Positions 6,761 through 21,108 are shown, counted from the first letter of the stretch. The stretch: 54,121 nucleotides of DNA from Gemmatimonadales bacterium (GCA_036379675.1 DASVGF010000051.1:1-54121); one strand, 5' to 3'. Notes: generated by a model from the letters alone, not told the origin. Made by a program: numbers and translations.

Positions 6761-6798
6761 AACGTCTGGGTGCGATTACGGGGTCGGGAAGCGCTGCG

Positions 6799-6815: not shown

Positions 6816-6824
6816 TCACCTCCC

Positions 6825-7844
6825 ATGATCATGACCATCCTTCATCGTGCAGTCCTGCCGCTCTGCTTCATGATCTTGACCAGCTGTCCTTCACCGAGGC
6901 TCGATCCCACTCCCGTCGCCCAGCCGGAGCCAAGTCGGCACGAGGGGTATGTCGACGCCGGCGCCGGCGTAACGCTCTTTTATCGGTTGGTTGGCGACGC
7001 AAACCCGGATACGGTCATAATTCTCCATGGTGGGCCCGGATTGACGATGGAGTACTTGGCCGGCGACCTCAGACCGCTCGCGGCGCACCATACGCTCCTT
7101 TTCTACGATCAACGAGGCGCTGGCCGTTCTTCACTCGTCAGTGATTCCGCTGCCCTTGATGGACAGCGCTTCGCAGAGGACTTGGAGGCAGTACGGCAAC
7201 ATTTCGGACTCCAGACGGTGACCCTGCTCGGTCACTCGTGGGGCGCTGGGGTCGCCGCGTTGTATGCGGCCCGGTATCCCGACCGGATTGAACGCCTCCT
7301 CATCGTGGACGGGATTCCGCTGCGAGCGGAGGGGCTTGTCCAGGCCTTTCAGGAGTTGGCGGCCCGGCGAGACAGCACAACGCGGCAACAGATGGCGAAG
7401 TGGATGGAGCTTAGGCGCGCCAACCCTGGCGATGTCGCCGCATGTCACGCCTACTATGTGTTATGGTTCCGCCCGTTCGTCGTGGATCCCACCGCGTTGA
7501 GCCGCAGCCGGGGCGACTTCTGCGCGGGCACCACGGAATCTCGGCGCAACAAGATTCTCAGTGTCGACCGATACGTAGCCGCCTCGCTCGGCAGTTGGGA
7601 CTGGCGGCCGGCGCTTCGACGAGTGAACGCCCCGACGTTGATCATTCACGGAGCCGCTGATCCGCTGCCCGTCGCCAGTGCCCGTGAGTGGGCGGCTGCT
7701 CTGCCCGATGCTCGGCTCCTGTTGCTTCAAGGAGTCGGCCACTTTCCGTACCTCGAGACGCCGGATGCCTTCTTTACTGCTGTCGACACGTACTTGCGTG
7801 GCTCCTGGCCGCAGGGCGCCGAGCCCGCGAAGTCGACGCCGTAA
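6825..7844 (+). CDS. Alpha/beta hydrolase lipoprotein (proline iminopeptidase-like)
   Basis: MIMTILHRAVLPLCFMILTSC carries a lipobox. HGGPG oxyanion motif, GHSWG nucleophile elbow and C-terminal GHFP histidine motif are present. Confidence 0.85.
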   Translation: MIMTILHRAVLPLCFMILTSCPSPRLDPTPVAQPEPSRHEGYVDAGAGVTLFYRLVGDANPDTVIILHGGPGLTMEYLAGDLRPLAAHHTLLFYDQRGAGRSSLVSDSAALDGQRFAEDLEAVRQHFGLQTVTLLGHSWGAGVAALYAARYPDRIERLLIVDGIPLRAEGLVQAFQELAARRDSTTRQQMAKWMELRRANPGDVAACHAYYVLWFRPFVVDPTALSRSRGDFCAGTTESRRNKILSVDRYVAASLGSWDWRPALRRVNAPTLIIHGAADPLPVASAREWAAALPDARLLLLQGVGHFPYLETPDAFFTAVDTYLRGSWPQGAEPAKSTP

Positions 7845-7854
7845 TGTGGTCGCG

Positions 7855-7897
7855 GCCTAACCGGCGCTTGGATCTGGCGGCGCGGGTAGGATATTAC
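7855..7897 (+). repeat. attC remnant (left half plus part of loop)
   Basis: GCCTAACCGGCGCTTGGATCTGGCGGCGCGGGTAGGATATTAC parallels consensus GCCTAACCAGCGCATGCAGCTGGCGGCGC..GTTAGATAGTGAC. No right arm. Confidence 0.6.
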
Positions 7898-7914
7898 ATG
7901 ACTACTGAGCAGCA

Positions 7915-7965
7915 GCCTAACAGGCGCATGCAAGTGGCGGCGCTTCAGGTTTAAGGAACACAGGG
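7915..7965 (+). repeat. attC remnant (second left half plus loop start)
   Basis: GCCTAACAGGCGCATGCAAGTGGCGGCGCTTCAGGTTTAAGGAAC, then similarity ends. No GTTRRRY before the next ORF (a weak GTTACCG at 7989). Confidence 0.65.
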
Positions 7966-7997
7966 CGCATTTCTTTCTTGAAGGGCTGGTTACCGCT

Positions 7998-8468
7998 TTG
8001 TACCTCTGGGTCAAGCTTCTCCACGTGGCCGCGGTTGTCGCCTTCCTCGGCAATATTACTACGGGTCTCTTCTGGCATGCCCATGCCGCCCGCACTCGTG
8101 ACCCCCGGCTACTCGCGCATGCGGTCGACGGCATCATCCGGAGTGACCGCCTTTTCACCATTCCGGGTGTCATCGTGATCATCGTAACCGGTGCCGTTGC
8201 AGCGGTTATCGGTGGGTTTCCGATCCTGCGGACTCCTTGGATCCTGTGGTCCTTGGTGCTGTTCGCCGTGTCGGGGCTGGTTTTCGTGTTGCGCGTCGCG
8301 CCCCTCCAGGTCCAGCTCCGAGCTCTTGCGCAGGCTGGGGTTGAACCGGGCGTATGGGATTGGGAACGCTACAAGCGCCTGGCGCGCACCTGGGAGCTGT
8401 GGGGCGCTGTTGCGTTGCTTACGCCCATGGCTGCCCTGGTCCTGATGGTACTCAAGCCGAGCTTCTAG
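7998..8468 (+). CDS. DUF2269-like integral membrane protein
   Basis: 156 aa, four hydrophobic helices. N-terminal LWVKLLHVAAVVAFLGN pattern as in DUF2269. TTG start. Confidence 0.55.
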   Translation: MYLWVKLLHVAAVVAFLGNITTGLFWHAHAARTRDPRLLAHAVDGIIRSDRLFTIPGVIVIIVTGAVAAVIGGFPILRTPWILWSLVLFAVSGLVFVLRVAPLQVQLRALAQAGVEPGVWDWERYKRLARTWELWGAVALLTPMAALVLMVLKPSF

Positions 8469-8483
8469 GAGTGCGCGCCAGGT

Positions 8484-8584
8484 GCCTAACAAGGGCATGC
8501 AGCTGGCGGTCGCTTCAGATCAAAGGAACGTCGGATAGTGTGCATGCGGCCAAGTCGCCGCAGCTGATGTGCGGTCCGTTCGGC
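8484..8584 (+). repeat. attC site, type A (101 bp), R' GTTCGGC
   Basis: R'' GCCTAAC 8484-8490, R' GTTCGGC 8578-8584. Loop CAGATCAAAGGAACGTCGGATAGTG. Confidence 0.88.
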
Positions 8585-8755
8585 AGCGTCGGAGATCAAA
8601 CAGCATCGCTTTGCGTCGGCAGAGCCACAAAGCTGTCGCATCTCAGACAGGTTCCACCCCATTCCCATTTCCGGGTCGGGCGCTACGTTCTTTTTATCCC
8701 CACACACGATCCAGTTACCGGTGCCGCCGACCGGAACCGGCCAGTAGGAGGTCCT

Positions 8756-9871
8756 ATGAAGCCCGCTATGCCCTACCGGGTTCTTGCCCTCTCGCTCCTT
8801 GCGCTGCTGCTGGCGATCCGGCCGGGTGCCGCACAGGGCCGGCTCGCCCTTGGAGTCGCAGCTGGTCCCTCGCCCTATGATCTCGCGGGCACCGGTACCG
8901 GCACCTCCGGAGCCGCGCTCCTGGCCTGGCGGCCGGTCCGCGGTCTGGTGGTGGAGCCCGGCGTTACGGTCTTCAGCTATGTCAGCCAGTTCGGCACACG
9001 CACCAGCCTCCTCTTTCCCGAGCTCAGCGTCCAGGGGGAGCTGGTGCGCGGTTCTTTTCGTCCTTTTATCGGCGGCGGAGCTGGCTCCTCGTTCGGTCTC
9101 CAAGGCGAAGGTGAAATAGCCCTGACACTGCACGCGGTGGGCGGCGCGCGCGTCGACCTCAGCGATGCATGGTCTCTGCTCGGCGAGATGAGGATACGGG
9201 CGGTTCGTCCCTGGACCGGGAACACAGTCGATTTCCTGTTCGGTGTCAGCCGACGGCTTCAGCAGTTCGTGGGGAGACCCGCCGGCCCGACCTATCTTCC
9301 TGCTGTGCCGGTGGACCGTTCCCCAGTGGACCCAGGTCGGTTCGAGCTGGCAGGGCACCTGGGCGTGCATGTGGACCGGCCTGCGGAGGCCGATCGGGTG
9401 GTCACCGACAGAGGTGCGGCGATGTACGCCACAGCGGGTGAGGCGAGCGCCTTCTCGGCACGGCTGGGGTACTGGCTACGTCCCGCACTGGGCCTTCAGT
9501 TTGGTGTGAGTCACTCCTCCAACGCGGCCTGGGAGGGCTCGACGCCGATTCCTCCTCCTGGTTTCGCCAACCGCACCACGTACCTGAGCGCCCGCGGCGT
9601 GGTTCGCACATCGCCGGTGCGGCCCCTGCATCTGTTCGCCGCGGCGGGGCCCGCTCTCATGCTGTATGGCGGGACGGGCGAGAATCTCCGGACCAGAGAT
9701 GCGGATCTGGGTGGTGTACTGGACGTAGGCGCTCGACTGCGCATGACCCCCTGGCTAGGGGTAGAGCTGGCATTGAGCAATTACTTCTACGGCTCACAGT
9801 ATCGGGACGAAGGGAGTGTTTTCCGGCACGACCTGCTGATCTTGCCGGGGCTGGTCTTCTCTTGGAACTAG
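8756..9871 (+). CDS. Exported protein, two outer-membrane beta-barrel-like modules
   Basis: GGAGG RBS 8745-8749, ATG 8756, signal peptide MKPAMPYRVLALSLLALLLAIRPGAAQ. Alternating hydrophobic beta-strand pattern. The upstream 134 aa of the track ORF run through attC and are rejected. Confidence 0.65.
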   Translation: MKPAMPYRVLALSLLALLLAIRPGAAQGRLALGVAAGPSPYDLAGTGTGTSGAALLAWRPVRGLVVEPGVTVFSYVSQFGTRTSLLFPELSVQGELVRGSFRPFIGGGAGSSFGLQGEGEIALTLHAVGGARVDLSDAWSLLGEMRIRAVRPWTGNTVDFLFGVSRRLQQFVGRPAGPTYLPAVPVDRSPVDPGRFELAGHLGVHVDRPAEADRVVTDRGAAMYATAGEASAFSARLGYWLRPALGLQFGVSHSSNAAWEGSTPIPPPGFANRTTYLSARGVVRTSPVRPLHLFAAAGPALMLYGGTGENLRTRDADLGGVLDVGARLRMTPWLGVELALSNYFYGSQYRDEGSVFRHDLLILPGLVFSWN

Positions 9872-9921
9872 AGCGCAACGTCTCCTGCGCGTCCAGCTAA
9901 AGTCGTGTGATCGCTGCCGCT

Positions 9922-10023
9922 GCCTGACAAGCGCATGCATCCGATGGCGCGTCACCTCCAAAGGAAGGATAGGATTGTGCCCAAGCGGAGAAGCCGCCGC
10001 AGCTGATGCGCGGTCCGTTAGGC
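9922..10023 (+). repeat. attC site, type A (102 bp), R'' GCCTGAC
   Basis: R'' GCCTGAC 9922-9928, R' GTTAGGC 10017-10023, arms AAGCGCATGCATCCGATGG / GCCGCCGCAGCTGATGCGCGGTCC. Confidence 0.88.
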
Positions 10024-10047
10024 CGATCGCACGATTGAGGAGGAAGC

Positions 10048-10419
10048 TTGACTTCAGCCCCGTCGTCTCCATGCGGCCCGCTCGCGGTGCTGTTCCTACT
10101 GCTGACCGGCTGCTACACCTGGCAACCGTACGAGCACGGACCACTGCTGATAGCGGGTGAGTCCCTACCACACAATCTGCGAGCCACACGACGCGACAGT
10201 ACTCAGGTCACTGTAACTGCACCCTTCCTTCGGTCGGATACCCTCTTCGGGCATCTCGACGGGGATACTGTTGCGGTTCCTGTTCCCGATATTGCTAGAG
10301 TGCAGCGGCTGGGCTTTAGCACCGTACGGACCTTGGGACTAGTGCTCGTCCCGGCTGCGGCTTTGGGGTTGACATATCTGATCGTCTGTGGGGAGCGTGG
10401 CTGCGAGCCACAGTACTGA
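10048..10419 (+). CDS. Lipoprotein with C-terminal TM helix; paralog of 16634-16978
   Basis: LLLTGC lipobox. Shares CYTWQPY, PFLRSDTLFG, DTV.VP and RTLGL motifs with the ORF downstream of lspA. TTG start. Confidence 0.7.
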   Translation: MTSAPSSPCGPLAVLFLLLTGCYTWQPYEHGPLLIAGESLPHNLRATRRDSTQVTVTAPFLRSDTLFGHLDGDTVAVPVPDIARVQRLGFSTVRTLGLVLVPAAALGLTYLIVCGERGCEPQY

Positions 10420-10430
10420 CTGTGGCAACG

Positions 10431-10530
10431 GCCTAACCAGCGCATGCAGCTGGCGGCGCTTTAGGTCTAAGGAACGTTAGATAGTGACAGTACTTAGAAG
10501 TCGCCGCAGCTCATGCGCGGTCCGTTAGGC
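10431..10530 (+). repeat. attC site, type A (100 bp), closest to consensus
   Basis: R'' GCCTAAC 10431-10437, R' GTTAGGC 10524-10530. Loop TTTAGGTCTAAGGAACGTTAGATAGTG 10460-10486. Confidence 0.92.
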
Positions 10531-10576
10531 TGCACGAGCAGCTGTCCGCCACTTTAACCTGAGCGGGGCCTCGGCA

Positions 10577-11035
10577 ATGATGCGCCTCAACTCTCGTGGC
10601 AGGAGCGGCCTTATCGTTTTAGCCCTTCTCCTTGCCTGTGGCGACTCGCCCTATGAACCGACACCGGGGCAGCTCGTCGGCGAGTTTAGCGGCCGGGCTG
10701 GCCAGGACTTGCAGACTTACGACCTCTTCCTTGCCATCGACGAGGTTGCCGACTCAGTGCGGGGGCTGTGGAGTCTCGCCTTCGTGACAACCTGTGCGAC
10801 CCACGACGGTCCGTTGAGCGGGACGCTGCATGGCGACCAGCTCCGGCTGCGCCTGCGACCGGACGAGGCGTACGAGGCCACCTTCGACCTGACCGTGCGC
10901 GTGCTTCCTGGCGATAGCGTACTGAGCGGAGGCTTGACTGTGGTGGCGGTGGGCACCGAACCCCTCTGCTTTGACGACTTCGCGTCGATCAGACTGCATC
11001 AGGGTGAGGTGGACGGTCTGCCGCTTGGGCGCTGA
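10577..11035 (+). CDS. Lipoprotein of unknown function
   Basis: MMRLNSRGRSGLIVLALLLAC has a positively charged n-region and LLAC lipobox. Confidence 0.65.
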   Translation: MMRLNSRGRSGLIVLALLLACGDSPYEPTPGQLVGEFSGRAGQDLQTYDLFLAIDEVADSVRGLWSLAFVTTCATHDGPLSGTLHGDQLRLRLRPDEAYEATFDLTVRVLPGDSVLSGGLTVVAVGTEPLCFDDFASIRLHQGEVDGLPLGR

Positions 11036-11046
11036 GGCTGTGTGCA

Positions 11047-11144
11047 GCCCAACAAGCGCATGCAGCCGACGGCCGTTCAGGTTCAAGGGAACGTTGGATT
11101 GTCCGCAGTCGAAAAGTCGTCGTAGCTGATGCGGTCCGTTTGAC
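11047..11144 (+). repeat. attC site, type A (98 bp), R'' GCCCAAC / R' GTTTGAC
   Basis: GCCCAAC 11047-11053, GTTTGAC 11138-11144. Arms AAGCGCATGCAGCCGACGG / GTCGTCGTAGCTGATGCGGTCC. Confidence 0.82.
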
Positions 11145-11155
11145 GCCAGGGAGAC

Positions 11156-11596
11156 GTGATGACGGTCAAACGCATGGACAACGTCGGTATCGTGGTCGAA
11201 GACCTCGATGCTGCCATTGAGTTTTTCACCGCGCTGGGCCTCGAGCTTGAGGGGCGTGCCCCGATCGAAGGAGACTGGGCCGATGGCGTCACTGGGTTGC
11301 GCAACATGCGGGTCGAGATTGCCATGCTGCGTACGCCCGACGGTCACGGCCGGCTTGAGATGTCCCGATTCTTCGCACCGCCTGTGGCCGCCGATCACCG
11401 CAGCGCCCCGGTGAACGCTCTCGGTTACTTGCGCGTCATGTTTACTGTGGAGGACATCGACGATACGCTCGCCCGGCTCGGCCCACGGGGCGCGAAGCTC
11501 GTCGGCAAAGTGGTCCGGTACCAAGACACCTATCGGCTCTGCTACATCCGGGGCCCCGAGGGAATCCTCATCGGGCTGGCCCAAGAGCTTCGATAG
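11156..11596 (+). CDS. VOC family protein (glyoxalase/bleomycin-resistance/dioxygenase fold)
   Basis: MDNVGIVVEDLDAAIEFFTALGLEL ... GYLRVMFTVEDIDDTLARL ... YIRGPEGILIGLAQ shows two beta-alpha-beta-beta-beta modules typical of VOC proteins. Confidence 0.8.
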   Translation: MMTVKRMDNVGIVVEDLDAAIEFFTALGLELEGRAPIEGDWADGVTGLRNMRVEIAMLRTPDGHGRLEMSRFFAPPVAADHRSAPVNALGYLRVMFTVEDIDDTLARLGPRGAKLVGKVVRYQDTYRLCYIRGPEGILIGLAQELR

Positions 11597-11622
11597 CCAT
11601 GGGCGGTGAATAGGAGCAGAAC

Positions 11623-12105
11623 GTGCATCGCTGGTGGGCCGTAGCTCTCGTGATCATCCTCTACCCGCCAGCGGCATCGCTTGCTGGTCAGGAACCCCAT
11701 GTCGCACCTAACGCTCCCTCGGACCGGCCTGTTCGCGTGACCGAGCAGGAACAACGACAGCGGCTCGAGGCCGCTTTGACGCCGTACGTCGCACAGGCTC
11801 GAGCGACCTTTCCTAACGCCAAGGCTCGCTATCTCCGAGGACTTCCAGCAGGCCAGAGTTTCTTCGTAACCATCAAGCTCCGCGACCAGGCGGGGCGTAG
11901 CGAAATGGTCTTCCTCGCGGTAGACAGTCTGGCTCGAGACATCTTTGGCCGAATCTGGAACCAGATCCACGTGGTCCACGGCTACCGGTTGCGTGATCGG
12001 CATGCGGTGGCCGAGCACGAGGTTCTGGATTGGCTCATCACGAAGCCGGACGGCTCGGAGGAGGGGAATGTGGTGGGGAAGTTTCTGGACACCTACCGGC
12101 CATAA
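11623..12105 (+). CDS. Exported protein, DUF2314-like
   Basis: Signal-like N-terminus MHRWWAVALVIILYPPAASLAGQ. FFVTIKL....E.VFLAVD....IFGRIWN......GYRLRD......EVLDW resembles DUF2314. No attC separates it from the VOC gene. Confidence 0.45.
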   Translation: MHRWWAVALVIILYPPAASLAGQEPHVAPNAPSDRPVRVTEQEQRQRLEAALTPYVAQARATFPNAKARYLRGLPAGQSFFVTIKLRDQAGRSEMVFLAVDSLARDIFGRIWNQIHVVHGYRLRDRHAVAEHEVLDWLITKPDGSEEGNVVGKFLDTYRP

Positions 12106-12127
12106 GTGCGCGGGCAGATGGCTTGCA

Positions 12128-12160
12128 GCCTCACAAAGGCATGCGGCTGACGCTTCAAGG
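12128..12160 (+). repeat. attC remnant (left half only)
   Basis: GCCTCACAAAGGCATGCGGCTGACGCTTCAAGG compared with GCCTAACAAGCGCATGCAGCTGGCGGCGCTTCAGG. Right arm absent. Confidence 0.6.
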
Positions 12161-12178
12161 CGAAGGAGTGGGCCTCAG

Positions 12179-12625
12179 ATGATTCTTCCACTTGGAGGCG
12201 GGGCGAAACTGGTCAGGCTTCTGCCGCCCGGCATTGTCGCTGTTACGATTCTTGCGTGTTCGGATTCGCCCTCGGAGCCGAGGTTCGAGCCCTGCCCTGG
12301 CGAGGCGGTGACGATGGAGGTCAGCGCCGGGCTGACACCACTGTTTACGTGGACCCCTGCCTGTGGCATGGCGTTCCTCGAAGTCTATCCTGCCGCCGGC
12401 GGCAGCGCCCTGTGGACAGTCTATGCGGAGTCGGGTGCGGGTCCGGAGAATCCAATCCCTTCGGGTGTTCGGTACGGTACCACCCCATTGCGTGGTCATA
12501 CGGTCGCCGGGCCCCAGCCGCTGCAAGCAGGCGACTCATATCGCGCTCGCGTCAGTCGCATGCTCTGTGACCAAGGGGCGCTCTGCACTCTCCAGCACGC
12601 GGGTGACGCGTCCTTTCAGCCGTAG
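12179..12625 (+). CDS. Lipoprotein of unknown function
   Basis: ATG 12179 gives MILPLGGGAKLVRLLPPGIVAVTILACSDS (lipobox ILAC). The longer track ORF from 11945 overlaps the previous gene and the attC remnant. Confidence 0.6.
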   Translation: MILPLGGGAKLVRLLPPGIVAVTILACSDSPSEPRFEPCPGEAVTMEVSAGLTPLFTWTPACGMAFLEVYPAAGGSALWTVYAESGAGPENPIPSGVRYGTTPLRGHTVAGPQPLQAGDSYRARVSRMLCDQGALCTLQHAGDASFQP

Positions 12626-12643
12626 TCCACCAGGCCCTGGTGC

Positions 12644-12683
12644 GCCTCACAGGCTGCTGCAGCTGGCGGACGGCCCGTTAGCC
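12644..12683 (+). repeat. attC site with internal deletion (40 bp)
   Basis: GCCTCAC 12644-12650 + AGGCTGCTGCAGCTGGCGGACGGCCC + GTTAGCC 12677-12683. Left and right arms are fused at the shared GCAGCTG and the loop is missing. Confidence 0.6.
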
Positions 12684-12691
12684 CGTTCGTC

Positions 12692-13363
12692 TTGACAGTA
12701 TCGGGGCAGCTCCACCAATTGGACCACGATCAGGAGCCGACGACTGCGGTACGCCATTATAACCCTCGATGCTGTCCGGGATTCCAAGTGGAGGACCTTC
12801 GCTACGAGCTGAGCGCGCGCGATGAAATCTCCTTTGTCAATGAGGAATGGTTTCGTTTCGCCCGGGCCAACGACGGAGAGTCTCTTCGCGCCGGCCAGAT
12901 CCTGGGTCGCCCCCTGTGGGATTTCATCGGTGACATGGAGACCCGACAGATTTACCGTCTCCTCCACCGGCGCGTGCGGGAGAACGGCACGCCGGTGCGG
13001 CTCTGCTTCCGATGTGACGCCCCTGACCGGCGCCGGCTCCTAGAGCTCGACATCTCCGCAGGGCCGGAACGCGGGTTGATCTACCGCGTCCGCACCTTGG
13101 GGGAACGAGAACGTCAACCAGTGCCGCTCCTGGAACCACAACGTCCACGCTCAGAGCATTTTGTGACCATCTGCGCGTGGTGCGAGCGAATCGCAGTGCC
13201 GCCTCACGGGTGGCTGGAGATTGAGTCGGCCATCGCGGTGCTGCCGCTGCTGGCCGAGCCCCGTCCCCCGCAGCTGACCCATGGCGTCTGCGAGGTGTGC
13301 GTTCAAGCTCTTCACGCCGCGCTCGGCGAAGAGCCCGTTAGGGCCGTGTTGGGTCAACTGTAG
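12692..13363 (+). CDS. PAS-like protein with C-terminal Cys-rich motif (CAWC...HGVCEVC)
   Basis: ISFVNEEWFRFARANDGE...GRPLWDFI resembles a PAS core. C-terminus is ICAWCERI....GWLE....THGVCEVC. Start uncertain (TTG 12692 or GTG 12788). Confidence 0.5.
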   Translation: MTVSGQLHQLDHDQEPTTAVRHYNPRCCPGFQVEDLRYELSARDEISFVNEEWFRFARANDGESLRAGQILGRPLWDFIGDMETRQIYRLLHRRVRENGTPVRLCFRCDAPDRRRLLELDISAGPERGLIYRVRTLGERERQPVPLLEPQRPRSEHFVTICAWCERIAVPPHGWLEIESAIAVLPLLAEPRPPQLTHGVCEVCVQALHAALGEEPVRAVLGQL

Positions 13364-13365
13364 TC

Positions 13366-13419
13366 CGAAGTGAGAAGCGGCTCAGGAAGTCGCCGCCGCT
13401 GATGCGCGGCCCGTTCAGG
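13366..13419 (+). repeat. attC remnant (loop end plus right half)
   Basis: AAGTCGCCGCCGCTGATGCGCGGCCCGTTCAGG matches the consensus right arm, with R' GTTCAGG at 13413-13419. No R''/left arm. Confidence 0.65.
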
Positions 13420-13468
13420 CCGACCACGGAAGGAGAAGGCGATCACTGTCAGCGCGGCTGCTCCCGGC

Positions 13469-14164
13469 GTGCGGGCGTGTGTCTTTGACGCCTACGGCAC
13501 GCTACTTGACTTGGCCTCTGCGGTAGACCCCCACAGAGCAGCGCTGGGCGAGACGGCACCCCGGCTCCTTGCGCTCTGGCGGGCGAAGCAGCTGGAGTAC
13601 ACCTGGCTGCGCACCCTTATGGAACGCCACGCCGACTTCGCCCGGGTGACCGAGGAGGCGCTGGAGTACGCCTGTGCGGCGCTCGACATCCGGGACTTGC
13701 CGCTGCGCCGCAGCCTCCTGACAGGCTTCCTCGAGCTGGCCGCCTATCCCGATGCAGCGCAGATGCTCCGGCGCCTGCGGGCGAGAGGGCTGCGCACCGC
13801 GGTGCTCTCGAACGGCACGCCTGCCATGCTCGAGCAAGCCTTGACGCAGGCGGGCCTCGCCCCGTTGCTCGACAGCGTGCTCTCCGTCGAGACCGTCGGG
13901 TTCTACAAGCCGAGTCCTCGCGTCTATCACTTCGCTGCCGAGACGCTCGAGCTCGAGATCGGGGCGCTGTTGTTCGTCAGTGCCAATGCGTGGGATGCGG
14001 CTGGCGCGGCGAGCGCGGGGCTGCGGGCAGTCTGGGTCAACCGCGCCGGTGCGCCGGCCGAGCGACTCCCAGCAGGCCCGGCGTTCACCCTGCGAACGCT
14101 GGGTGAGGTGCCTGCCCTTCTCGGCGGGGGCCCGGAGGGGCCGCCGGGGCCTGTGGCGGCCTAG
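13469..14164 (+). CDS. Haloacid dehalogenase type II (HAD superfamily)
   Basis: FDAYGTLLD nucleophile motif, WR.KQLEYTWLR, LSNG, FYKP and SANAWDAAGA motifs characteristic of L-2-haloacid dehalogenases. TAG stop 14162-14164 lies inside GCCTAGC. Confidence 0.85.
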   Translation: MRACVFDAYGTLLDLASAVDPHRAALGETAPRLLALWRAKQLEYTWLRTLMERHADFARVTEEALEYACAALDIRDLPLRRSLLTGFLELAAYPDAAQMLRRLRARGLRTAVLSNGTPAMLEQALTQAGLAPLLDSVLSVETVGFYKPSPRVYHFAAETLELEIGALLFVSANAWDAAGAASAGLRAVWVNRAGAPAERLPAGPAFTLRTLGEVPALLGGGPEGPPGPVAA

Positions 14165-14241
14165 CCCACGCATGCTTCCGACGGCGCTTTGGTTACTTAG
14201 GATCGGAGGATAGCGCGCAGGGTCAGACGAATGACTAAGGC
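14159..14241 (+). repeat. Degenerate attC (R'' GCCTAGC, R' position CTAAGGC)
   Basis: Left arm CCACGCATGCTTCCGACGGCGCTTTGG and loop TTAGGATCGGAGGATAGCG are recognisable. The right arm is eroded and GTT is replaced by CTA. Confidence 0.55.
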
Positions 14242-14331
14242 CTAGACCGGCCGGAGCTCACGGGCGCTCTACTTTGAGGAAGCACTGACGCGCGATCGTC
14301 AGGCCGACGCGACGATACTGGCGGAGGGGTA

Positions 14332-14832
14332 ATGAGGCGGTGGCAACGGTGGGCTGCCCTCACTCCACTCGCCCTGGGACTCGGCCCCTGGGCGGCTGCG
14401 GCCGCCCAGACGACGTTCTATGCCGGGGCTGGCTTTGGCTACACGGCAGTGGTGGACGGCGGCCTGGGCAATCGACAGGGCAGCCGAAACTGGTTCGGCA
14501 TGGTAGGTCTGGAGAGCGGGGGCCCTGTAGGCGGCCGCCTGGAAGGTGCGGAAACCATGAGCCGGCTGTGGCTGAGTGCCGATCTGACCTACCGGCTGAG
14601 TGCCCGTGATCGACAAGTGCGTCCCTACGGGGTGATCGGTGGCGGGTTCGTGCTGGACCTGTCGGAATTGGATCCACTGCTCACCCTCGGGGCGGGACTT
14701 CGGGTACAGGCCGGGCGCCTCATCTTTCTGTTCACCGAGGCGCGGCTCCAGTGGGTGCCCAGCATGCCAGCCACATCGGGGGAAGCTAGGCTCGTTCTGC
14801 CGCTCATCGCTGGACTCGGGATCGGCTACTGA
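14332..14832 (+). CDS. Small outer-membrane beta-barrel-like exported protein
   Basis: Signal peptide ...LGPWAAAAAQ, alternating beta-strand pattern, C-terminal ...AGLGIGY aromatic end. Confidence 0.6.
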   Translation: MRRWQRWAALTPLALGLGPWAAAAAQTTFYAGAGFGYTAVVDGGLGNRQGSRNWFGMVGLESGGPVGGRLEGAETMSRLWLSADLTYRLSARDRQVRPYGVIGGGFVLDLSELDPLLTLGAGLRVQAGRLIFLFTEARLQWVPSMPATSGEARLVLPLIAGLGIGY

Positions 14833-14838
14833 GTCGCC

Positions 14839-14887
14839 GCCTCACAAGCGCATGCGGCCGCCGGGCTTCATCGATAAGGAATGTCGG
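14839..14887 (+). repeat. attC remnant (left half plus loop start)
   Basis: GCCTCACAAGCGCATGCGGCCGCCGGGCTTCATCGATAAGGAATGTCGG, then similarity ends. Confidence 0.65.
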
Positions 14888-14917
14888 TTGAAACCTGCAT
14901 CGGACCCCGAGCATTCA

Positions 14918-15496
14918 ATGCAAACCGAGCACCTGACTCGCGAGGACCTGGTTTCGGCACTATCGGCTGCGGAAGTGGACGTTGCAGACTTCTTCGCCTC
15001 GCTCACTCCAGACGAGCTTGTTTTGCGGGTGGAGAACGCCTGGACCGCTGCCGAGCAGCTCGCCCATCTCAACGCTGCCGTGAGTGCGGTGGCGAGGGGT
15101 TTTGCAGTTCCGCGGATTATCCTGCGTCTTCGATTCGGTCGGGCCCGGAGCTCCGGACGTAGCTACACGGCACTACGGGACGATTATCGTGCCCGGCTGG
15201 CGGCCGGTGGTCGGGCTTCCGGGCCGTTCGTTCCCAATCGCCATGATCTGCCGACGTCACAGGGTGAAGCGCGTCGCCGTGACTTGCTCGCACGTTGGCA
15301 CAGGGTAAACAATCGGCTTCAGAAGGCGCTCGAGTCGTGGAACGAGCAGGCTCTGAATACGATCCGGCTGCCTCATCCCTTGCTGGGGAAGATCACCGCT
15401 CGGGAGATGATCTACTTCACGTTGTACCACGCCAAGCACCACGTGACTGCGACCAAGAAACGGCTGCCACGCTTCACCGGGTCAAGTGCCGGCTGA
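14918..15496 (+). CDS. DinB family protein
   Basis: ATG 14918. WTAAEQLAHL near the N-terminus and FTLYHAKHH near the C-terminus fit the DinB/YfiT-type four-helix metal-binding His pattern. TGA stop 15494-15496 lies inside GGCTGAC. Confidence 0.6.
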   Translation: MQTEHLTREDLVSALSAAEVDVADFFASLTPDELVLRVENAWTAAEQLAHLNAAVSAVARGFAVPRIILRLRFGRARSSGRSYTALRDDYRARLAAGGRASGPFVPNRHDLPTSQGEARRRDLLARWHRVNNRLQKALESWNEQALNTIRLPHPLLGKITAREMIYFTLYHAKHHVTATKKRLPRFTGSSAG

Positions 15497-15520
15497 CAAG
15501 CGCATTCAGCCGATAAGCAG
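15491..15520 (+). repeat. attC remnant (left half only)
   Basis: GGCTGACAAGCGCATTCAGCCGATAAGCAG compared with GCCTAACAAGCGCATGCAGCCGAC. Confidence 0.55.
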
Positions 15521-15547
15521 CAAACCACCCTGTGCTGGGAGGCCAGC

Positions 15548-15916
15548 GTGAAACGACCACTGACAGGAATGATACTGGCGCTCACCAGCCTCCCGGCTTG
15601 CAGCGAGCGGGAGGCGACTCGCGATCCCGGGTCTTCTCACGCTGCCGAGGCGGTACCCCGATTGGATTCCGCCAAGGTGCCGGCCGATCTGCGGGATCTC
15701 GTGCCGTACGCGCAGCGCTGGGGGATCGGAGATGATGTCGCCCGCTCAGCGCGGGTTCGGAAGGCCACCGACGCCGAACGATCCGAACTGCGCGCGGCCT
15801 TTGGCCCGCGGCAGGCGCGGATCACAGCCTGGCTCGATTCCTTTGGACCGGGAGCAATGCCGGAGGAGGCGGCGGCCTTCATGTACACCCAGCTTGCCAT
15901 CGAGGAAATGCCCTAG
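15548..15916 (+). CDS. Lipoprotein of unknown function
   Basis: MKRPLTGMILALTSLPAC has a lipobox-like LPAC. GTG start. Confidence 0.55.
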   Translation: MKRPLTGMILALTSLPACSEREATRDPGSSHAAEAVPRLDSAKVPADLRDLVPYAQRWGIGDDVARSARVRKATDAERSELRAAFGPRQARITAWLDSFGPGAMPEEAAAFMYTQLAIEEMP

Positions 15917-15945
15917 GACGCGGCAGGCAGCGGGGATGTCACCCG

Positions 15946-16018
15946 GCCGCTAGCCGCCGGCCCGCTGGTACTCCATTTTCCAGAATTCCCCCGCCAGAGC
16001 GTGAAGCGGCCGTTAGCC
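15946..16018 (+). repeat. Degenerate attC (right half well conserved)
   Basis: GCGTGAAGCGGCCGTTAGCC (R' GTTAGCC 16012-16018) parallels GCTGATGCGCGGTCCGTTAGGC. The left part GCCGCTAGCCGCCGG is only weakly similar to GCCTAGCC-type R''. Confidence 0.45.
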
Positions 16019-16091
16019 AGTACAACGTGCGGAGGATGACAAACACGGAACGGCGCACATTCTCGAAGGTGCCATATTCCGGGATGTTGAC

Positions 16092-16589
16092 GTGTCTCCT
16101 AAAGTACGGTCGTTCTGGCCACTCCTGCTGAGTGTGCTCCTGACCGATTGCGCGACCAAGCAGTTCGCCATCGAGCGCCTCGCGCCGGTTGCCACACCGC
16201 ACGAGGTGCTGGGAGACTGGGTCAGACTCGTCCTTGTTTATAACCGCGGGGCGGCCATGGGTCTTTCCCTGGGATCCTGGGCTCGACCGCTCCTGGCGGT
16301 GGTCACGGTGGCGATGCTGGGGCTCTTGTGGGTGTGGTATCGGCGGACCAGGCGGCGGGATTGGATGACGGCGGCCGCACTGGGGCTGATCGCGGGCGGG
16401 GCGCTGGGGAATCTGCTGGACCGCCTGCGGTGGGACCGGGGGGTGGTGGACTTCATCGACATTGGCTGGGGATCGGTTCGCTTCTGGACTTTCAATGTGG
16501 CCGATGTCGGCATCACCTGCGGTGCCCTGTGGCTGGCGTGGCGACTGAGCCGCCGTCAGGCCGAACCACCTGAGCCGGCTGCGGTCTGA
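16092..16589 (+). CDS. lspA: Lipoprotein signal peptidase (signal peptidase II)
   Basis: LLTDCATKQ (conserved D/K), NRGAAMG, GGALGNLLDR, VVDFID and FNVADV motifs align with E. coli LspA. GTG start. TGA stop lies inside GTCTGAC. Confidence 0.9.
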   Translation: MSPKVRSFWPLLLSVLLTDCATKQFAIERLAPVATPHEVLGDWVRLVLVYNRGAAMGLSLGSWARPLLAVVTVAMLGLLWVWYRRTRRRDWMTAAALGLIAGGALGNLLDRLRWDRGVVDFIDIGWGSVRFWTFNVADVGITCGALWLAWRLSRRQAEPPEPAAV

Positions 16590-16608
16590 CCAGCGAGGCC
16601 GGTTGGGC
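16584..16608 (+). repeat. Possible minimal attC relic after lspA (GTCTGAC-N11-GTTGGGC)
   Basis: An RYYYRAC-like heptamer contains the lspA stop and is followed 11 nt later by GTTGGGC (the same R' variant as 5648). Too short to fold as a functional attC. Confidence 0.25.
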
Positions 16609-16633
16609 CGAGCCCGAAATCGGTGGAGGATTC

Positions 16634-16978
16634 ATGCGGTCATGGAACGCCTGGTTTCTCGCAGGTCTCGCGCTCTTTCTGGGAAGCTGCACCTACTGGG
16701 AGCCCTATGCTCCACTCGCATCTACGGGTCCATCACCGGACTTGCCGTCTTCACTCCAGGTCGTATCCGACACCGGCTCACCCCTGCTGCTCACCGAGCC
16801 ATTTGTCAGGGCCGACACCCTCTTCGGCCGCACCGGTCGGGACACCGTGCGGCTTCCGCTCCACCAGCTGCGTGAAGTACAGCGTCAACGGGTACATGGA
16901 TTGCGGACCCTCGGCTTGATTGCAGGCGTGGGCGCGGTATGGATCACTGTAGGGCTGTACGGTGGCGGGCTGGAATAG
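16634..16978 (+). CDS. Lipoprotein with C-terminal TM helix; paralog of cassette ORF 10048-10419
   Basis: LALFLGSC lipobox. CTYWEPY, PFVRADTLFG, DTVRLP and RTLGL motifs are shared with the cassette protein. Confidence 0.7.
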   Translation: MRSWNAWFLAGLALFLGSCTYWEPYAPLASTGPSPDLPSSLQVVSDTGSPLLLTEPFVRADTLFGRTGRDTVRLPLHQLREVQRQRVHGLRTLGLIAGVGAVWITVGLYGGGLE

Positions 16979-17003
16979 GTCACGGCGCATGGAACTGGGA
17001 GGG
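16977..17003 (+). repeat. Possible attC left-half relic
   Basis: AGGTCAC-G-GCGCATG-GAACTGG-GAGG compared with GCCTCAC-AA-GCGCATG-CAGCTGG-CGG. It starts at the stop codon of the preceding ORF. Confidence 0.3.
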
Positions 17004-17007
17004 GATC

Positions 17008-17391
17008 ATGGAGACTGTGGACCGTGCGTTCGGGTGGCTGCTGATCGTCGGAGGGGTCCTGCATGCGATCGGCTCATGGACGGGTTACAGGACTACGCCC
17101 GAGACGCTCCTCTGGGCCCTCGCGGGCTCGCTGGCGGCCCTGCTCGTGGCCGCGGTCAACCTGCTGCGGGCGGGCCGGCCGGGCGACCTTCCGCTGGCGT
17201 GGGTGAGCCTTGGCGGATCCGTCGCGTGGATGGCGGTGGCCCTCGGCTTCGGGATCGTGATCGGGAACCTCCTCGACCCTCGCGCGCTGATCCATATGCT
17301 CAACGCGCTGGTTCTGGCGGGGATGAGCCTGCGTACGGTCGGGCGTGCGAAAAAGGGGGCGCAGTATCCCCGAGGGCGCGGCGGAACCTGA
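17008..17391 (+). CDS. Integral membrane protein of unknown function
   Basis: GGGAGGGG RBS then ATG 17008. Four predicted hydrophobic helices. Confidence 0.55.
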   Translation: METVDRAFGWLLIVGGVLHAIGSWTGYRTTPETLLWALAGSLAALLVAAVNLLRAGRPGDLPLAWVSLGGSVAWMAVALGFGIVIGNLLDPRALIHMLNALVLAGMSLRTVGRAKKGAQYPRGRGGT

Positions 17392-17542
17392 ATTTTCTGC
17401 GGGCGCGGTAGCGTGCCAGGTGAGTGGTCTGCCAATACTGAGTCGCCCTCCTTCCACTTAACCGGGCCCTAGCCGTCCCCGCATAGCCTCTTCAGATTTC
17501 GAGCAGCCTGATCCTGTGTTTGGCAGCGTGGAGCCGCGTTGG

Positions 17543-17899
17543 ATGACCGTGAGCGCAAGCTTCAGAGCCTTCGTCCTCGAACAACTCGCCCGTGAGGTTC
17601 AGGGCATCCGCGGGCGGAACATGTTCGGCGGGGTGGGGATCTACAGTGGGGAGCTTTTCTTTGCGCTGATTGCCGATGACTCCCTGTACTTCAAGGTAGA
17701 CGAATCGAATCGGCCGGAGTTCGAGGCCAGAGGCATGGGTCCCTTTCAACCGTACGGCGAAGACGGCGAGGTGATGCAATACTACCGTGTGCCCGAGGAT
17801 CTGCTCGATGACCCCGAAGTGTTGGGCCAATGGGCTGAGAAAGCGATCAGTGTGGCACGCCGTGCCCGGCGCGGGCCTCCTCGCCGGCGCGGCGCCTGA
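17543..17899 (+). CDS. TfoX N-terminal domain protein
   Basis: MFGGVGIYSGELFFALIADDSLYFKVD....EF...G..PF......G.....YY.VP matches the TfoX_N pattern. Confidence 0.7.
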   Translation: MTVSASFRAFVLEQLAREVQGIRGRNMFGGVGIYSGELFFALIADDSLYFKVDESNRPEFEARGMGPFQPYGEDGEVMQYYRVPEDLLDDPEVLGQWAEKAISVARRARRGPPRRRGA

Positions 17900-17935
17900 G
17901 TGTCAGGAAACCGGCAGAACAGGAAGGAAGCCTCG

Positions 17936-18589
17936 ATGGTTCCAGCACGCGAAGCCCTCGCCCGGCTGCGGGAAGGGAACCTCCGGTTCGCTTCGAACGT
18001 CGGTGGCTCCCATCCATACCCGGCTCACGTGCGGCGGGCCGAGCTGGCCTCCGGCCAGCAGCCGTTCGCCATCATACTCGGCTGCTCGGACTCGCGGGTG
18101 CCGGCCGAGATCGTGTTCGATCAGGGATTGGGCGACCTTTTCGTCATTCGCGTTGCCGGCAACATCGTGGCCCCCTCCCAGGTCGGCAGCGTCGAGTTTG
18201 CCGCCGCCCGGTTCAATACCCGGCTGGTGGTAGTGCTGGGACACTCGCAGTGCGGCGCGGTCCTGGCCACGCTGGAAGAGCTTCAAAGGCCGACGGAGAA
18301 CCAGTCTCGCAACCTGCGGGCAATCGTCGATCGGGTGCGCCCCTCCGTCGAGGGGCTGCTGGCAACCGGACTACGGCACGATCTGGACGCCCTCATGCCG
18401 CACGCGGTTCGGGCTAACATCCGCGCATCCGTCAACCACCTGCGCCACGGCTCCGAGGTGCTGGAGCAGCTGATTCAGGACGAAGGCCTGCGCGTCGTCG
18501 GCGCCGAGTACTCACTGGAAACCGGCGTGGTGGACTTCTTCGACGGCGCTCCCGCAATTGAAGGCGTGTCGGTTCTCGAGGAGGCGTAG
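17936..18589 (+). CDS. Beta-class carbonic anhydrase
   Basis: CSDSRVPAEIVFDQGLGDLFVIRVAGN and VVLGHSQCGAV zinc-ligand motifs. AGGAAGG RBS upstream of ATG 17936. Confidence 0.88.
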   Translation: MVPAREALARLREGNLRFASNVGGSHPYPAHVRRAELASGQQPFAIILGCSDSRVPAEIVFDQGLGDLFVIRVAGNIVAPSQVGSVEFAAARFNTRLVVVLGHSQCGAVLATLEELQRPTENQSRNLRAIVDRVRPSVEGLLATGLRHDLDALMPHAVRANIRASVNHLRHGSEVLEQLIQDEGLRVVGAEYSLETGVVDFFDGAPAIEGVSVLEEA

Positions 18590-18602
18590 CGGCTCGGCTC
18601 GG

Positions 18603-19208
18603 ATGAGACACCCCGAGCTCCGGACCGAGCTGCTCGAGCTTGCCGCGCACGACCTGCGAGTACGATCGGAGATCGCGTCAGCCGGCCAGCTGAGCCAGGC
18701 CGGGTATCATCCGCAAATGCAGGAGGTACACCGCCGCAACGCCGAGCGGCTCCGTGCCATCCTTGCCCGCCACGGGTGGCCCGACGAGGACATGGTCGGT
18801 CCCGATGGGGCCGAGGCCGCGTGGCTCATCGTCCAACATGCCATCGGCGATCCCGCGCTCCAGCGCCAGTCGCTGGAGCGCGTGCAGCGCGCAGCGAGCC
18901 TGGGCGCGGTGCCGGGCTGGCAGGCCGCGTTTCTGGAAGACCGGATCAGGTTCTTCGAGGGCCGACCCCAGCTTTACGGGACCCAATTCGACTGGGACGA
19001 GTCGGGCCAGCTGAGCCCGGCACCCGACATCGAAGATCCCGCTGGAGTGGACGCCCGCCGGCGGTCCGTTGGGCTGGAGCCGCTGGCAGAGGCGACACGC
19101 CGGCACCGGGAGCGGGCGGCGATCGACAACGAGCGCCCCCCCGCAGATCCTGCCGCCCGGCGGCGCGAGCTGGAAGAGTGGGCCCGCCGGGTGGGCTGGC
19201 GCCGCTAG
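18603..19208 (+). CDS. Conserved hypothetical protein (DUF6624-like)
   Basis: L.E....D...R ... N...L..I....GWP....VG..GA.AAWL.VQHA ... AFLEDR......Q.YGTQ pattern. Assignment by memory only. Confidence 0.45.
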   Translation: MRHPELRTELLELAAHDLRVRSEIASAGQLSQAGYHPQMQEVHRRNAERLRAILARHGWPDEDMVGPDGAEAAWLIVQHAIGDPALQRQSLERVQRAASLGAVPGWQAAFLEDRIRFFEGRPQLYGTQFDWDESGQLSPAPDIEDPAGVDARRRSVGLEPLAEATRRHRERAAIDNERPPADPAARRRELEEWARRVGWRR

Positions 19209-19229
19209 GCGCTTCGCCGAGGAGTCGCC

Positions 19230-19538
19230 ATGCATCTGGTCCAGCTTCTCCTGCCGGTTCGCGACGAGTCGGGCCGGCCCTTCCCCCGGAAGCTGTACGA
19301 TACGCTGGTTGATGAGCTGACCGACCGGTTTGGCGGCGTGACGGCCTACACCCGGGCTCCGGCCTCCGGCCTGTGGGAAGAGAACTCGGGACGGACGGTG
19401 CGAGACGACGTGGTCGTCTACGAGGTCATGGCCAACCAGCTCGATGAGAGATGGTGGAAAGCGCTGCGAACCCGCCTGGAGAAGGCATTCGATCAGGATG
19501 AGCTGGTTGTGCGGGCCCATGAAATACGCCGGCTGTAA
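19230..19538 (+). CDS. Hypothetical protein (102 aa)
   Basis: Clean ATG ORF with plausible composition. No family recognised. Confidence 0.5.
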   Translation: MHLVQLLLPVRDESGRPFPRKLYDTLVDELTDRFGGVTAYTRAPASGLWEENSGRTVRDDVVVYEVMANQLDERWWKALRTRLEKAFDQDELVVRAHEIRRL

Positions 19539-19571
19539 CCTCCCCCTTTTCCCACCAGCAACGAGGGATTC

Positions 19572-19979
19572 TTGCCAAGCAACCTGTTCGAGCTCACGGT
19601 TGGCATCGCGATCGGAGTGCTCGCGGCCTGGGTGTGTTTCCTGGTCTGGAAGGTGGGGTATACCACCCGCATCCGGGAGGATGCGGTTCAGCGCAGCCAG
19701 GCGATAACGGCGGGGAAGGTCCACGAGCAGCTGATTCCCTATCTCCCCGTGTTTCCCTACAACCCGAAGGACGTCCGGTTTCTCGGCAGCCCGGTGGATC
19801 TGGTGGTGTTTGACGGGCTGTCGGAAGGCCGGTTGGACCGCATCGTCTTCGTTGAGGTCAAGACCGGCGGCTCCGGCCTGACCATCCGTGAACGATCCGT
19901 GCGGGACGTCGTTCGCGCTGGGGAAATCGACTGGGAGGAGCTCCGCGTGCCCCGTCCCGTTGCCAGCGGCGCGGCGTGA
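19572..19979 (+). CDS. Membrane-anchored Holliday-junction-resolvase-like endonuclease (COG4741-like)
   Basis: N-terminal TM helix. GSPVDLVVFDG......IVFVEVKTGGS.L..RE resembles the archaeal Hjc/PD-(D/E)xK core. TTG start. Confidence 0.5.
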   Translation: MPSNLFELTVGIAIGVLAAWVCFLVWKVGYTTRIREDAVQRSQAITAGKVHEQLIPYLPVFPYNPKDVRFLGSPVDLVVFDGLSEGRLDRIVFVEVKTGGSGLTIRERSVRDVVRAGEIDWEELRVPRPVASGAA

Positions 19980-20004
19980 CCAGCCTTTCGTAGATGGAGG
20001 ACTC

Positions 20005-20763
20005 ATGCTTCGATACTCTCTCGCCGTCCTGACACTGTCGGTCGCCGGCGTCCACCTGGCGCAGGAGCCGGAGCTGCTTCGACGCGCCAGGATGGTCCGG
20101 ATGTCCTCGCTGGATTCCACGCTTCCGGCTGTCTCCCTCGAGCGTTGGCTGCTCCAGCAGGCAGCGGGGGCGGGCGCGAAGGTTGAGTGGGAGGTCAACG
20201 ACTGTGGTGAGGGTGGCGACGGGCTGGCGGCACCCACCTGCGTGGAAGGCCGGGTCCAAGTGGCCCCCGATACCGCCGCCTACCTCAGCCTGATCGTGGC
20301 CGGTACCGATGGGGAATCGGGCAGACCGGAGATCTGGTCGCTGCATGCCACTGAAGGAAGGGCCGTCACCACCTTCCAGAGCCTTCCGGCTTGGGCGGCG
20401 TACCTTCGCCGAGACCCGCGACGCCAGGTGTTCGTGGCCGAGAGCAGCTTCGCGGCCAGCATGGCCCGTCGCGACCTCGAGGCCTTTGCGGCCTTTGTCT
20501 CGCCCGAAGCGGTCTTCTTCGCCGATACGGCGGTGCTGCGCGGCCGCGACCGGGTCGTCGAGGGCTGGCGGCGGTTCTTCGTGGGCCCGGCCCCCTTCTC
20601 CTGGAAACCCGACGTCATCGAGGTGCTCCCCTCGGGCAAGCTCGCGATCAGCAACGGGCCCGTCTTCGATCCAGCCGGCAAGAAGATCGGCAGCTTCAGC
20701 TCGATCTGGCGCCGGGAGCCCGATGGCCGCTGGCTGATCATCTTCGACAAGGGCTGCGCCTGA
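20005..20763 (+). CDS. Exported protein with C-terminal SnoaL-like/DUF4440 domain
   Basis: GGAGG RBS, ATG 20005, signal peptide MLRYSLAVLTLSVAGVHLAQ. The C-terminal FVSPEAVFF....LRGRD.V..GW ... GRWLIIFDKG has the NTF2-like pattern. Confidence 0.6.
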   Translation: MLRYSLAVLTLSVAGVHLAQEPELLRRARMVRMSSLDSTLPAVSLERWLLQQAAGAGAKVEWEVNDCGEGGDGLAAPTCVEGRVQVAPDTAAYLSLIVAGTDGESGRPEIWSLHATEGRAVTTFQSLPAWAAYLRRDPRRQVFVAESSFAASMARRDLEAFAAFVSPEAVFFADTAVLRGRDRVVEGWRRFFVGPAPFSWKPDVIEVLPSGKLAISNGPVFDPAGKKIGSFSSIWRREPDGRWLIIFDKGCA

Positions 20764-21108
20764 GTGTTCGTCCGCATCTGGAAGTTCCACGTGCATCCCG
20801 GCAGGAACCACGAGTTCGAGGCCGCCTATGGGCCTATCGGACCCTGGACCCGGCTCTTTGAGCGGGTAGCCGGCTATTGCGGCACCGAGCTCCTGACTGA
20901 CGCCGGCGACGCGAATACCTACTTCACCATCGATTGGTGGGAGAGCGCGGAGGCATGGGCCGCGTTTCTGCGGGCGTGGGGTGAAGACTATGCCGCGCTT
21001 GATCGGCGTTGCGAGGGGCTGGCGCTTTCAGAAATGGAGGTGGGAGAGTTCCAGGGGCTCGGGGCCTCCGACCCGGCGTGCCAGAAGTTGCGAAACACGA
21101 TCGAATAG
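20764..21108 (+). CDS. Antibiotic biosynthesis monooxygenase (ABM)-like protein
   Basis: MFVRIWKFHV..G....FE..Y ... YFTIDWWES.EAW..F has the ferredoxin-like ABM pattern. GTG start abuts the upstream stop. Confidence 0.55.
   Translation: MFVRIWKFHVHPGRNHEFEAAYGPIGPWTRLFERVAGYCGTELLTDAGDANTYFTIDWWESAEAWAAFLRAWGEDYAALDRRCEGLALSEMEVGEFQGLGASDPACQKLRNTIE

Follow-up and report, generated by a model that had tools for sequence, protein, structure and literature searches.

Intact, eroded and site-free layers in what is probably the integrase-distal end of a chromosomal integron array in a Gemmatimonadales bacterium

According to the established integron model, new cassettes enter an array only at the attI site, and a cassette can leave only if it has a working attC on each side. 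In sedentary chromosomal integrons, such as the Vibrio cholerae superintegron and the ilvD-linked integron of Xanthomonas, small promoterless genes form a long one-way array with homogeneous, lineage-specific attC sites of about 100 nucleotides (nt), reverse-oriented toxin-antitoxin cassettes are known, and the array holds a fixed chromosomal site in related genomes. Here, we describe an array that is alike in these respects and lies at the start of a 54,121-nt stretch of DNA (the window; GCA_036379675.1 DASVGF010000051.1:1-54121) from the soil metagenome-assembled genome (MAG) of a Gemmatimonadales bacterium. It differs from the sedentary integrons in its host phylum, Gemmatimonadota, in that an integrase was not seen, and in its long far end, along which the attC sites pass from relics to no trace. 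We interpret the window as the integrase-distal end of a large chromosomal integron array in which a terminal-site ratchet has left age-ordered layers, a reading to which we assign a probability of roughly 0.7.

Other systems share parts of this picture. In class 1 integrons, it is established that partial or total attC loss joins intact genes into fused cassettes and that the last cassette is fixed, as in the distal 3' conserved segment with qacE-delta-1/sul1 (PMC8876359, PMC4670013); here, however, about 18 genes in a row are involved rather than one or two, the setting is chromosomal, and there is comparative evidence of stepwise fixation. Cury et al. (2016) suggested that single or degraded attCs stem from cassettes undergoing genetic degradation (PMC4889954). 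Clusters of attC sites lacking integron integrases (CALIN), with at least two attCs and no integron integrase within 4 kb, resemble the locus in having no integrase in view, but intI cannot be said to be absent, since the array is cut by the ends of both the window and the relatives' contigs, and the strong conservation of the working sites argues for an active integrase. As an analogy only, clustered regularly interspaced short palindromic repeat (CRISPR) arrays also grow at one end, carry their oldest units at the other and typically end in a degenerate leader-distal repeat, while the integron differs in its unrelated machinery, in units that can also be excised and in having genes as cargo. 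In the integron literature searched, including studies of Treponema, Vibrio and Xanthomonas and with incomplete coverage, we found no explicit description of a polar series of attC decay. The locus clearly illustrates a process that had been proposed for integrons before, and is not a new system or mechanism.

From base 1 of the window to about 21.1 kb, nearly all genes were small and on the + strand; the GC content of the window was 62-69%. The genes up to 11.1 kb were separated by a repeat of about 100 nt (about 140 nt in two copies), starting with GCCTAAC and ending with GTTAGGC. Over 11 aligned sites, the consensus was GCCTAAC ... GTTAGGC with AAC and GTT almost invariant, in agreement with the R'' (RYYYAAC) and R' (GTTRRRY) motifs of attC sites. 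RNAalifold gave a consensus hairpin of 22 pairs, with R''/R' and L''/L' pairing and an extrahelical G at column 16, and the succession of a 6-bp R box, an unpaired spacer, a 6-bp L box, the extrahelical G and a further stem corresponds to the canonical attC hairpin. The same hairpin was obtained by bottom-strand DNA folding of the sites at 1736, 3680, 10431 and 5076. No compensatory changes were seen in the hairpin, the family being too uniform, and minimum-free-energy z-scores did not separate intact sites from relics.

Sites were scored with two covariance models, R1, trained on 11 attC sites of the window itself, and R2, trained only on 16 sites from relatives (loci L167 and L082) so as to avoid circularity; the two were in agreement. 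The noise level of R2 was about 15 bits (best false match 15.1, at 29156 on the - strand). Rfam holds no attC family and gave no match anywhere in the window. Half-site weight matrices were also scanned, with a null maximum of 10.5 over 87,000 positions for left halves and of 3.5 for right halves, and each junction was aligned to the attC family consensus to see which part of a site survives. All attC-type matches were on the + strand between 1214 and about 17000, and the whole-window scan found none on the - strand or in 17-54 kb.

For the comparison, we distinguished zone A (1-11.1 kb), zone B (11.1-17.5 kb) and zone C (17.5-21.1 kb). The last lies outside 11597-17003, for which a first-pass annotation had proposed a gradient of attC decay running away from attI. 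Zone A (1..11144, + strand), which is cut by the window start, contained 12 full attCs plus stubs at 4471, 7856 and 7915. The full-length sites numbered 12, as in that annotation, and all were located at or before 11144 (R2 scores of 33-103 bits): 1214-1354 (53 bits), 1736-1837 (98), 2284-2425 (50), 2965-3066 (95), 3680-3780 (103), 5076-5139 (33), 5554-5654 (94), 6138-6236 (62, with a mutated R'), 8484-8584 (98), 9922-10023 (80), 10431-10530 (94) and 11047-11144 (60; 81 with R1). The site at 5076-5139 is short and of a different type (64 nt, GGTTAAC ... GTTAGGC), and the last one is already damaged, with an R' of GTTTGAC and a 2-nt deletion in L'. Twelve + strand sites in 11 kb, each after a short open reading frame (ORF) of the same strand and frequently with the ORF stop codon inside R'', are as expected of an integron array.

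Covariance-model scoring recovered the proposed trend. All 12 intact sites were within the first 15 of 23 sites (p = 3.4e-4), and bit scores fell with position (Spearman rho = -0.64, p = 3.8e-4). The first 15 sites alone showed no trend (rho = -0.05), so that the profile drops in one step at 11.14 kb, with relics fading beyond it, rather than along a smooth gradient. Zone A was itself damaged in places, namely, by the three stubs and the mutated R' at 6138 and 11047, so that about a quarter of the proximal sites (3-5 of 15) were affected, and one of its gene junctions (6257-6760 / 6750-7844) had no site at all.

Zone B (11145..17515, + strand) consists of 11 co-oriented intact genes (VOC, DUF2314-like, d2, d3, HAD, d5, DinB, d7, LspA, lipo2 and a membrane protein). 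The best R2 scores past 11144 were 18.1 (14159), 15.4 (12601-12683), 14.6 (12128) and 11.6 bits (14839), at about the noise level. The half-site scores, however, were far above their null, with 17.5-28.1 for the left halves at 12128, 12644, 14159, 14839 and 15491, and the relics named in the first-pass annotation proved real. The relic at 12128..12165 retained the left arm and part of the center, with the right arm deleted and R'' reading CCTCAC (left-half score 24.0; covariance model 14.6-15.5 bits), and at 12644..12683 the half-site scan and the alignment revealed an internal deletion joining R'' to L'/R' within about 40 nt. At 13356..13420, the center and right arm were left, the left arm was gone and R' had a 1-nt insertion (right-half score 28.3, at 13388). 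The site at 14158..14290 was full length and heavily mutated, with a readable left arm and center and a right arm scrambled by substitutions and insertions (left-half score 22.4; 16-18 bits), and its bottom-strand fold did not form the hairpin. Left arm and center were found at 14838..14890, again with an R'' of CCTCAC (28.1), and a 21-nt left-arm stub at 15491..15513 (22.6). A possible, very weak right-arm relic at 15985..16020, upstream of lspA and ending CCGTTAGCC, aligned near noise and is doubtful. All of these are on the + strand.

Further along the + strand, the lipo2 ex-cassette (16603..17004; gene 16634-16978) had lost its upstream attC, of which the R' core GTTGGGC was left at 16603, and the alignment revealed a 20-nt left-arm trace (16984-17004) of the attC downstream. 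No remnant could be aligned between the membrane-protein gene and TfoX. Two VOC and DUF2314-like gene pairs had been reported to have no site between them; we found one, comprising the VOC/glyoxalase gene (11156-11596, +, by Pfam) and a weakly DUF2314-like gene, d1 (11623-12105, +, Pfam DUF2314 E = 0.07), whose 26-nt gap contained no attC trace and aligned at noise, while the other site-free pair is the proximal one in zone A. Altogether, partial or total attC loss, as in fused or fixed distal cassettes, was found at ten zone B and four zone A junctions. Most of the erosion took the form of losing one arm by deletion rather than of gradual point decay. Left-only relics outnumbered right-only ones (about 7 versus 2), but not significantly, and the arrays L109 and L110 described below did not repeat this excess.

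Zone C (17516..21108, + strand) encodes TfoX_N, a beta-carbonic anhydrase, DUF6624, a 102-aa protein, Endonuc_Holl, DUF4440/SnoaL and ABM (Pfam). These genes abut or overlap and are co-oriented with the array, and no attC signal was detected in the zone by R1, R2 or the half-site scans. The first - strand gene past it, p667 (21207..23210), encodes an LVIVD-repeat protein and belongs to the conserved chromosomal flank, with hundreds of orthologues (72-94% identity) on many Gemmatimonadales contigs and 85-91% identity of the flank at the nucleotide level. Using p667 as the anchor, six orthologous contexts were compared (L081/L167, L082, L083, L084, L085 and L086). In the closest, L081/L167 (p667 94%, flank 91% at the nucleotide level), ABM, Endonuc_Holl, carbonic anhydrase, TfoX and SnoaL_2 lie without attC, followed by a degraded attC and then by 14 good attCs (37-112 bits) to the contig end. 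The degraded terminal site scored 26.9 bits, with GTT changed to GTG and a scrambled left arm. L082 (p667 93%) has ABM, DUF4440, Endonuc_Holl, the 102-aa gene, carbonic anhydrase, SnoaL_2 and TfoX, then two lineage-specific site-free genes and three good attCs, and L083 (92%) has ABM, DUF4440 and Endonuc_Holl before its contig ends. At greater distance, only DUF4440 was found in L086 (81%) and only ABM, 51% identical, in L085 (78%), and in L084 (77%; an 831-kb contig) unrelated genes take the place of the array, which is absent. Zone C is thus syntenic in the three contigs with p667 at 92-94%, and the sharing is nested, the genes nearest the flank being common to the deepest relatives, which is what an age-ordered fixed block predicts.

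Two genes link the site-free or eroded DNA to true cassettes. A TfoX-anchored metagenome scan (80 loci) showed TfoX between intact attCs of the same family in L120, L100 and L134, and TfoX is therefore a true cassette gene. Lipo2 matched a cassette of L081 at 76% identity over 16602-16981 (blastn), with the homology starting exactly at the R' core and ending just past the stop codon, and the L081 homologue sits between attCs of 37.5 and 97 bits. Since the homology runs from the R' core to the stop codon of a true cassette, the sites flanking lipo2 in the window must have been deleted. The layering was also visible in composition and spacing. The mean GC content at third codon positions (GC3) was 0.70, 0.74 and 0.79 in zones A, B and C, respectively, and 0.84 in core genes; over 31 genes GC3 rose with position (Spearman rho = 0.52, p = 0.003), and zones A and B together differed from zone C (p = 0.008). 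The median intergenic gap was 131 nt in zone A, 73 nt in zone B and 0 nt in zone C.

Similar far ends were present in other, non-orthologous arrays. L110 has good sites to 6969, then a weak site and three half-site relics (region 7392-10420), after which small + strand genes are packed over about 6 kb with no sites among them. In L109, two right-half relics lie past the last good site, and in L102 packed + strand genes extend for about 5 kb past the last site. The attCs of the relatives score 87-112 bits with R1 though the flanks differ by 9-15%, which argues for purifying selection on working attCs and hence for an active integrase in the lineage.

As all sites are co-oriented on the + strand, the integron model places attI and intI upstream of window position 1; the side called proximal here is that indicated by attC and ORF orientation. 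All DNA beyond the last working attC would then be locked in, and each damage to the terminal attC would add one cassette to the locked block, so that the block could only grow, like a ratchet. Locked hairpin sites would be lost mainly by deletions that take one arm or the whole site and spare the neighboring genes, after which gaps would shrink and base composition would drift toward that of the host, possibly without any part for selection. Internal damaged sites would only fuse neighbors that can still be excised as a unit, and because such internal losses merely fuse excisable cassettes, damage would visibly accumulate at the far end only. The first-pass annotation had named distance from attI as the cause of the polarity, for which the more economical cause would be that excision is impossible past the last working attC.

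Several observations weigh against this reading. Neither the window nor the contigs of the relatives, all of which start inside the array, showed intI or attI. Decay within zone B is non-monotonic, the VOC / DUF2314-like junction being nearest to the last good site and yet without a relic, and the GC3 contrasts between neighboring zones are weak (A versus B, p = 0.18; B versus C, p = 0.085). Zone B is as lineage specific as zone A in the nearest available relatives, so that its fixation is not supported by conservation; the organisms in other sequencing runs were either about 90% alike or the same strain, at low depth, and no relative of intermediate distance was present in the data. Finally, the outer block is not frozen. 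Among the relatives, DUF6624, DUF4440, the 102-aa gene and d2 fragments were gained or lost, and TfoX, carbonic anhydrase and Endonuc_Holl of L081 are 78-82% identical to those of the window compared to 91% for the flank, which indicates that the block underwent replacement or recombination.

The proposal that the array gives a time axis consequently stands in part. The synteny of zone C, the nested sharing, the cassette nature of TfoX and lipo2, GC3, the gaps and the terminal degradation in relatives are in line with it, while the lack of conservation of zone B is not. The distal cassettes had been expected to be conserved and the proximal ones variable, but in the nearest available relatives 11.6-17 kb was as lineage specific as the proximal cassettes, and the conserved part lay further out, at 17.5-21.1 kb, so that the proposal half fails the refuting condition set for it. 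No zone A or B genes of the window were found in the relatives' loci, except lipo2 and fragments of d2. The latter gene (12179-12625) is intact in the window, whereas L081 and L082 hold frameshifted d2-like fragments between TfoX/SnoaL_2 and carbonic anhydrase (L081rc 8192-8409; L082rc 3580-3687), showing that genes of the fixed block decay too. The TfoX/carbonic anhydrase junction of the window has no d2 fragment, the intact d2 lying five kb further in. Domestication of the distal cassettes, as earlier suggested, is unproven, for although the genes of the window are intact, the fixed block of relatives has lost genes and carries pseudogene fragments.

We also considered whether the attC hairpins, as obstacles to transcription and translation, were removed by selection that turned useful distal cassettes into co-expressed operons, in which case the layers would reflect usefulness and not age. 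All genes in zones B and C are intact, the deletions leave coding sequences untouched, the gaps are down to operon-like values, and class 1 integrons offer documented cases of fused cassettes that are translationally coupled (PMC8876359, PMC4670013). Nevertheless, such adaptive fusion seems unlikely to us, given the d2-like pseudogene fragments and gene losses in the relatives' fixed block and the persistence of relics of 20-130 nt where clean removal would be expected; the nested synteny and the GC3 trend, moreover, fit age.

Random failure of sites in a decaying, integrase-less CALIN could produce polarity by chance, and the split of the sites (p = 3.4e-4) makes this quite improbable. It would account for the damage to 3-5 of the 15 proximal sites and for an integrase not being visible in the window, but not for the recurrence of the polarity in L167, L082, L110 and L109, nor for the likeness of working sites (87-112 bits) across genomes whose flanks differ by 9-15%, which implies selection for function. 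It is very improbable that the genes of zones B and C are ordinary chromosomal ones, with relics that go back to stray secondary-site insertions or to chance matches. Although zone C lacks any attC signal and its GC3 is like that of core genes, and although integrases are known to mediate insertions outside att sites (bioRxiv 10.1101/2022.09.11.507474), the relics score far over the null, on one strand only and at gene junctions, the boundaries of lipo2 coincide with those of a true cassette, other arrays carry TfoX as a cassette, and the block is absent from the relative with p667 at 77%. That repeat collapse or chimeric joins created the half sites is scarcely credible, even for a MAG and with repeats that break assemblies (the relatives' contigs begin within arrays), since independent Logan contigs from the probable source run cross every zone B junction with 0-1 differences, and contigs in two runs belonging to other studies agree too.

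If the layers were laid down by a terminal-site ratchet, the locus offers a readable comparative record of the fate of cassettes after capture, in which sites are deleted, genes become packed and host-like, and some then decay. The ratchet also predicts a simple rule for closely related genomes with chromosomal integrons. Annotation by attC detection would stop at 11.1 kb and overlook about 10 kb of DNA derived from cassettes, with 18 genes. More tentatively, and with slightly less than even confidence, we propose that arrays act as one-way conveyors into the chromosome, fixing single cassettes in turn as terminal attCs are irreversibly lost, so that any long-lived array would carry at its far end a record ordered by age (intact sites, relics, packed site-free tract). 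Tracts of small, co-oriented accessory genes beside arrays, of 6-10 kb in this lineage and in unrelated contigs such as L110 and L102, would then constitute a general, uncounted route by which cassette genes become operon-like chromosomal genes.

The locus also documents a large integron array in Gemmatimonadota, a little-studied phylum. Window base 1 falls within a cassette carrying an amidohydrolase gene, and the array is therefore truncated there. The visible part has 12 intact sites and about 12 relics, to be set beside the more than 19 attCs, or the presence of the array in all genomes of a species, by which Cury et al. (2016) recognize sedentary integrons. In zone A, a reverse-oriented toxin-antitoxin cassette (2434..2938), of a kind known from sedentary chromosomal integrons, encodes a ParE toxin (2434-2691, -; Pfam ParE_toxin E = 4e-12) and its partner, a likely antitoxin (2678-2938, -). 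The relative L167 also bears toxin-antitoxin cassettes, ParE/Unstab_antitox and BrnT (168-676 and 10834-11118), and, between two good attCs, a reversed 989-aa Ser/Thr kinase-TPR gene (3238-6207, -), which is either an exceptionally large cassette or a gene inserted into one. The short site at 5076-5139 follows a RibD_C gene with a GC3 of 0.84, far above its neighbors, and this cassette was probably captured with its site from the pool of another integron.

In zone B, the inverse-core change from CCTAAC to CCTCAC, which breaks the conserved AAC, was seen in three of the five distal left-arm relics (12131, 12647 and 14842). This recurrence is only marginally unlikely by chance (estimated p ~0.04) and may reflect shared descent, a mutational hotspot or selection that disfavors recombination. 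The VOC/glyoxalase cassette (11153-11654) had 3-5 times the depth of its neighbors in several soil runs, with variants 90-95% alike that run on into differing downstream sequence, and is a common cassette borne by several organisms. Among the ex-cassettes, the gene for the lipoprotein signal peptidase LspA (16092-16589, +) is absent at this locus in the relatives and is presumably an accessory second copy.

In zone C, the beta-carbonic anhydrase gene (17900-18589) was unsuitable as an anchor for orthologous loci, as it returned 80 loci across many phyla without synteny. Its product is 71-86% identical to proteins in contigs labeled Gemmatimonadota, Acidobacteriota, Planctomycetota, Proteobacteria and others, in contexts that are all different (L001-L080), with attCs of the same family a few kb off in L059 and a weak attC 480 nt upstream in L024. 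The gene looks widely transferred and possibly cassette-borne. A 519-aa ORF on the - strand (18678-20237) was rejected as a spurious antisense ORF, being without homologues, and the GC3 frame analysis puts the true genes on the + strand. Finally, contigs with 0-1 differences to the window (20800-27000 and 10400-17900) turned up at low depth in eight or more runs belonging to several studies, and the strain is widespread and nearly clonal.

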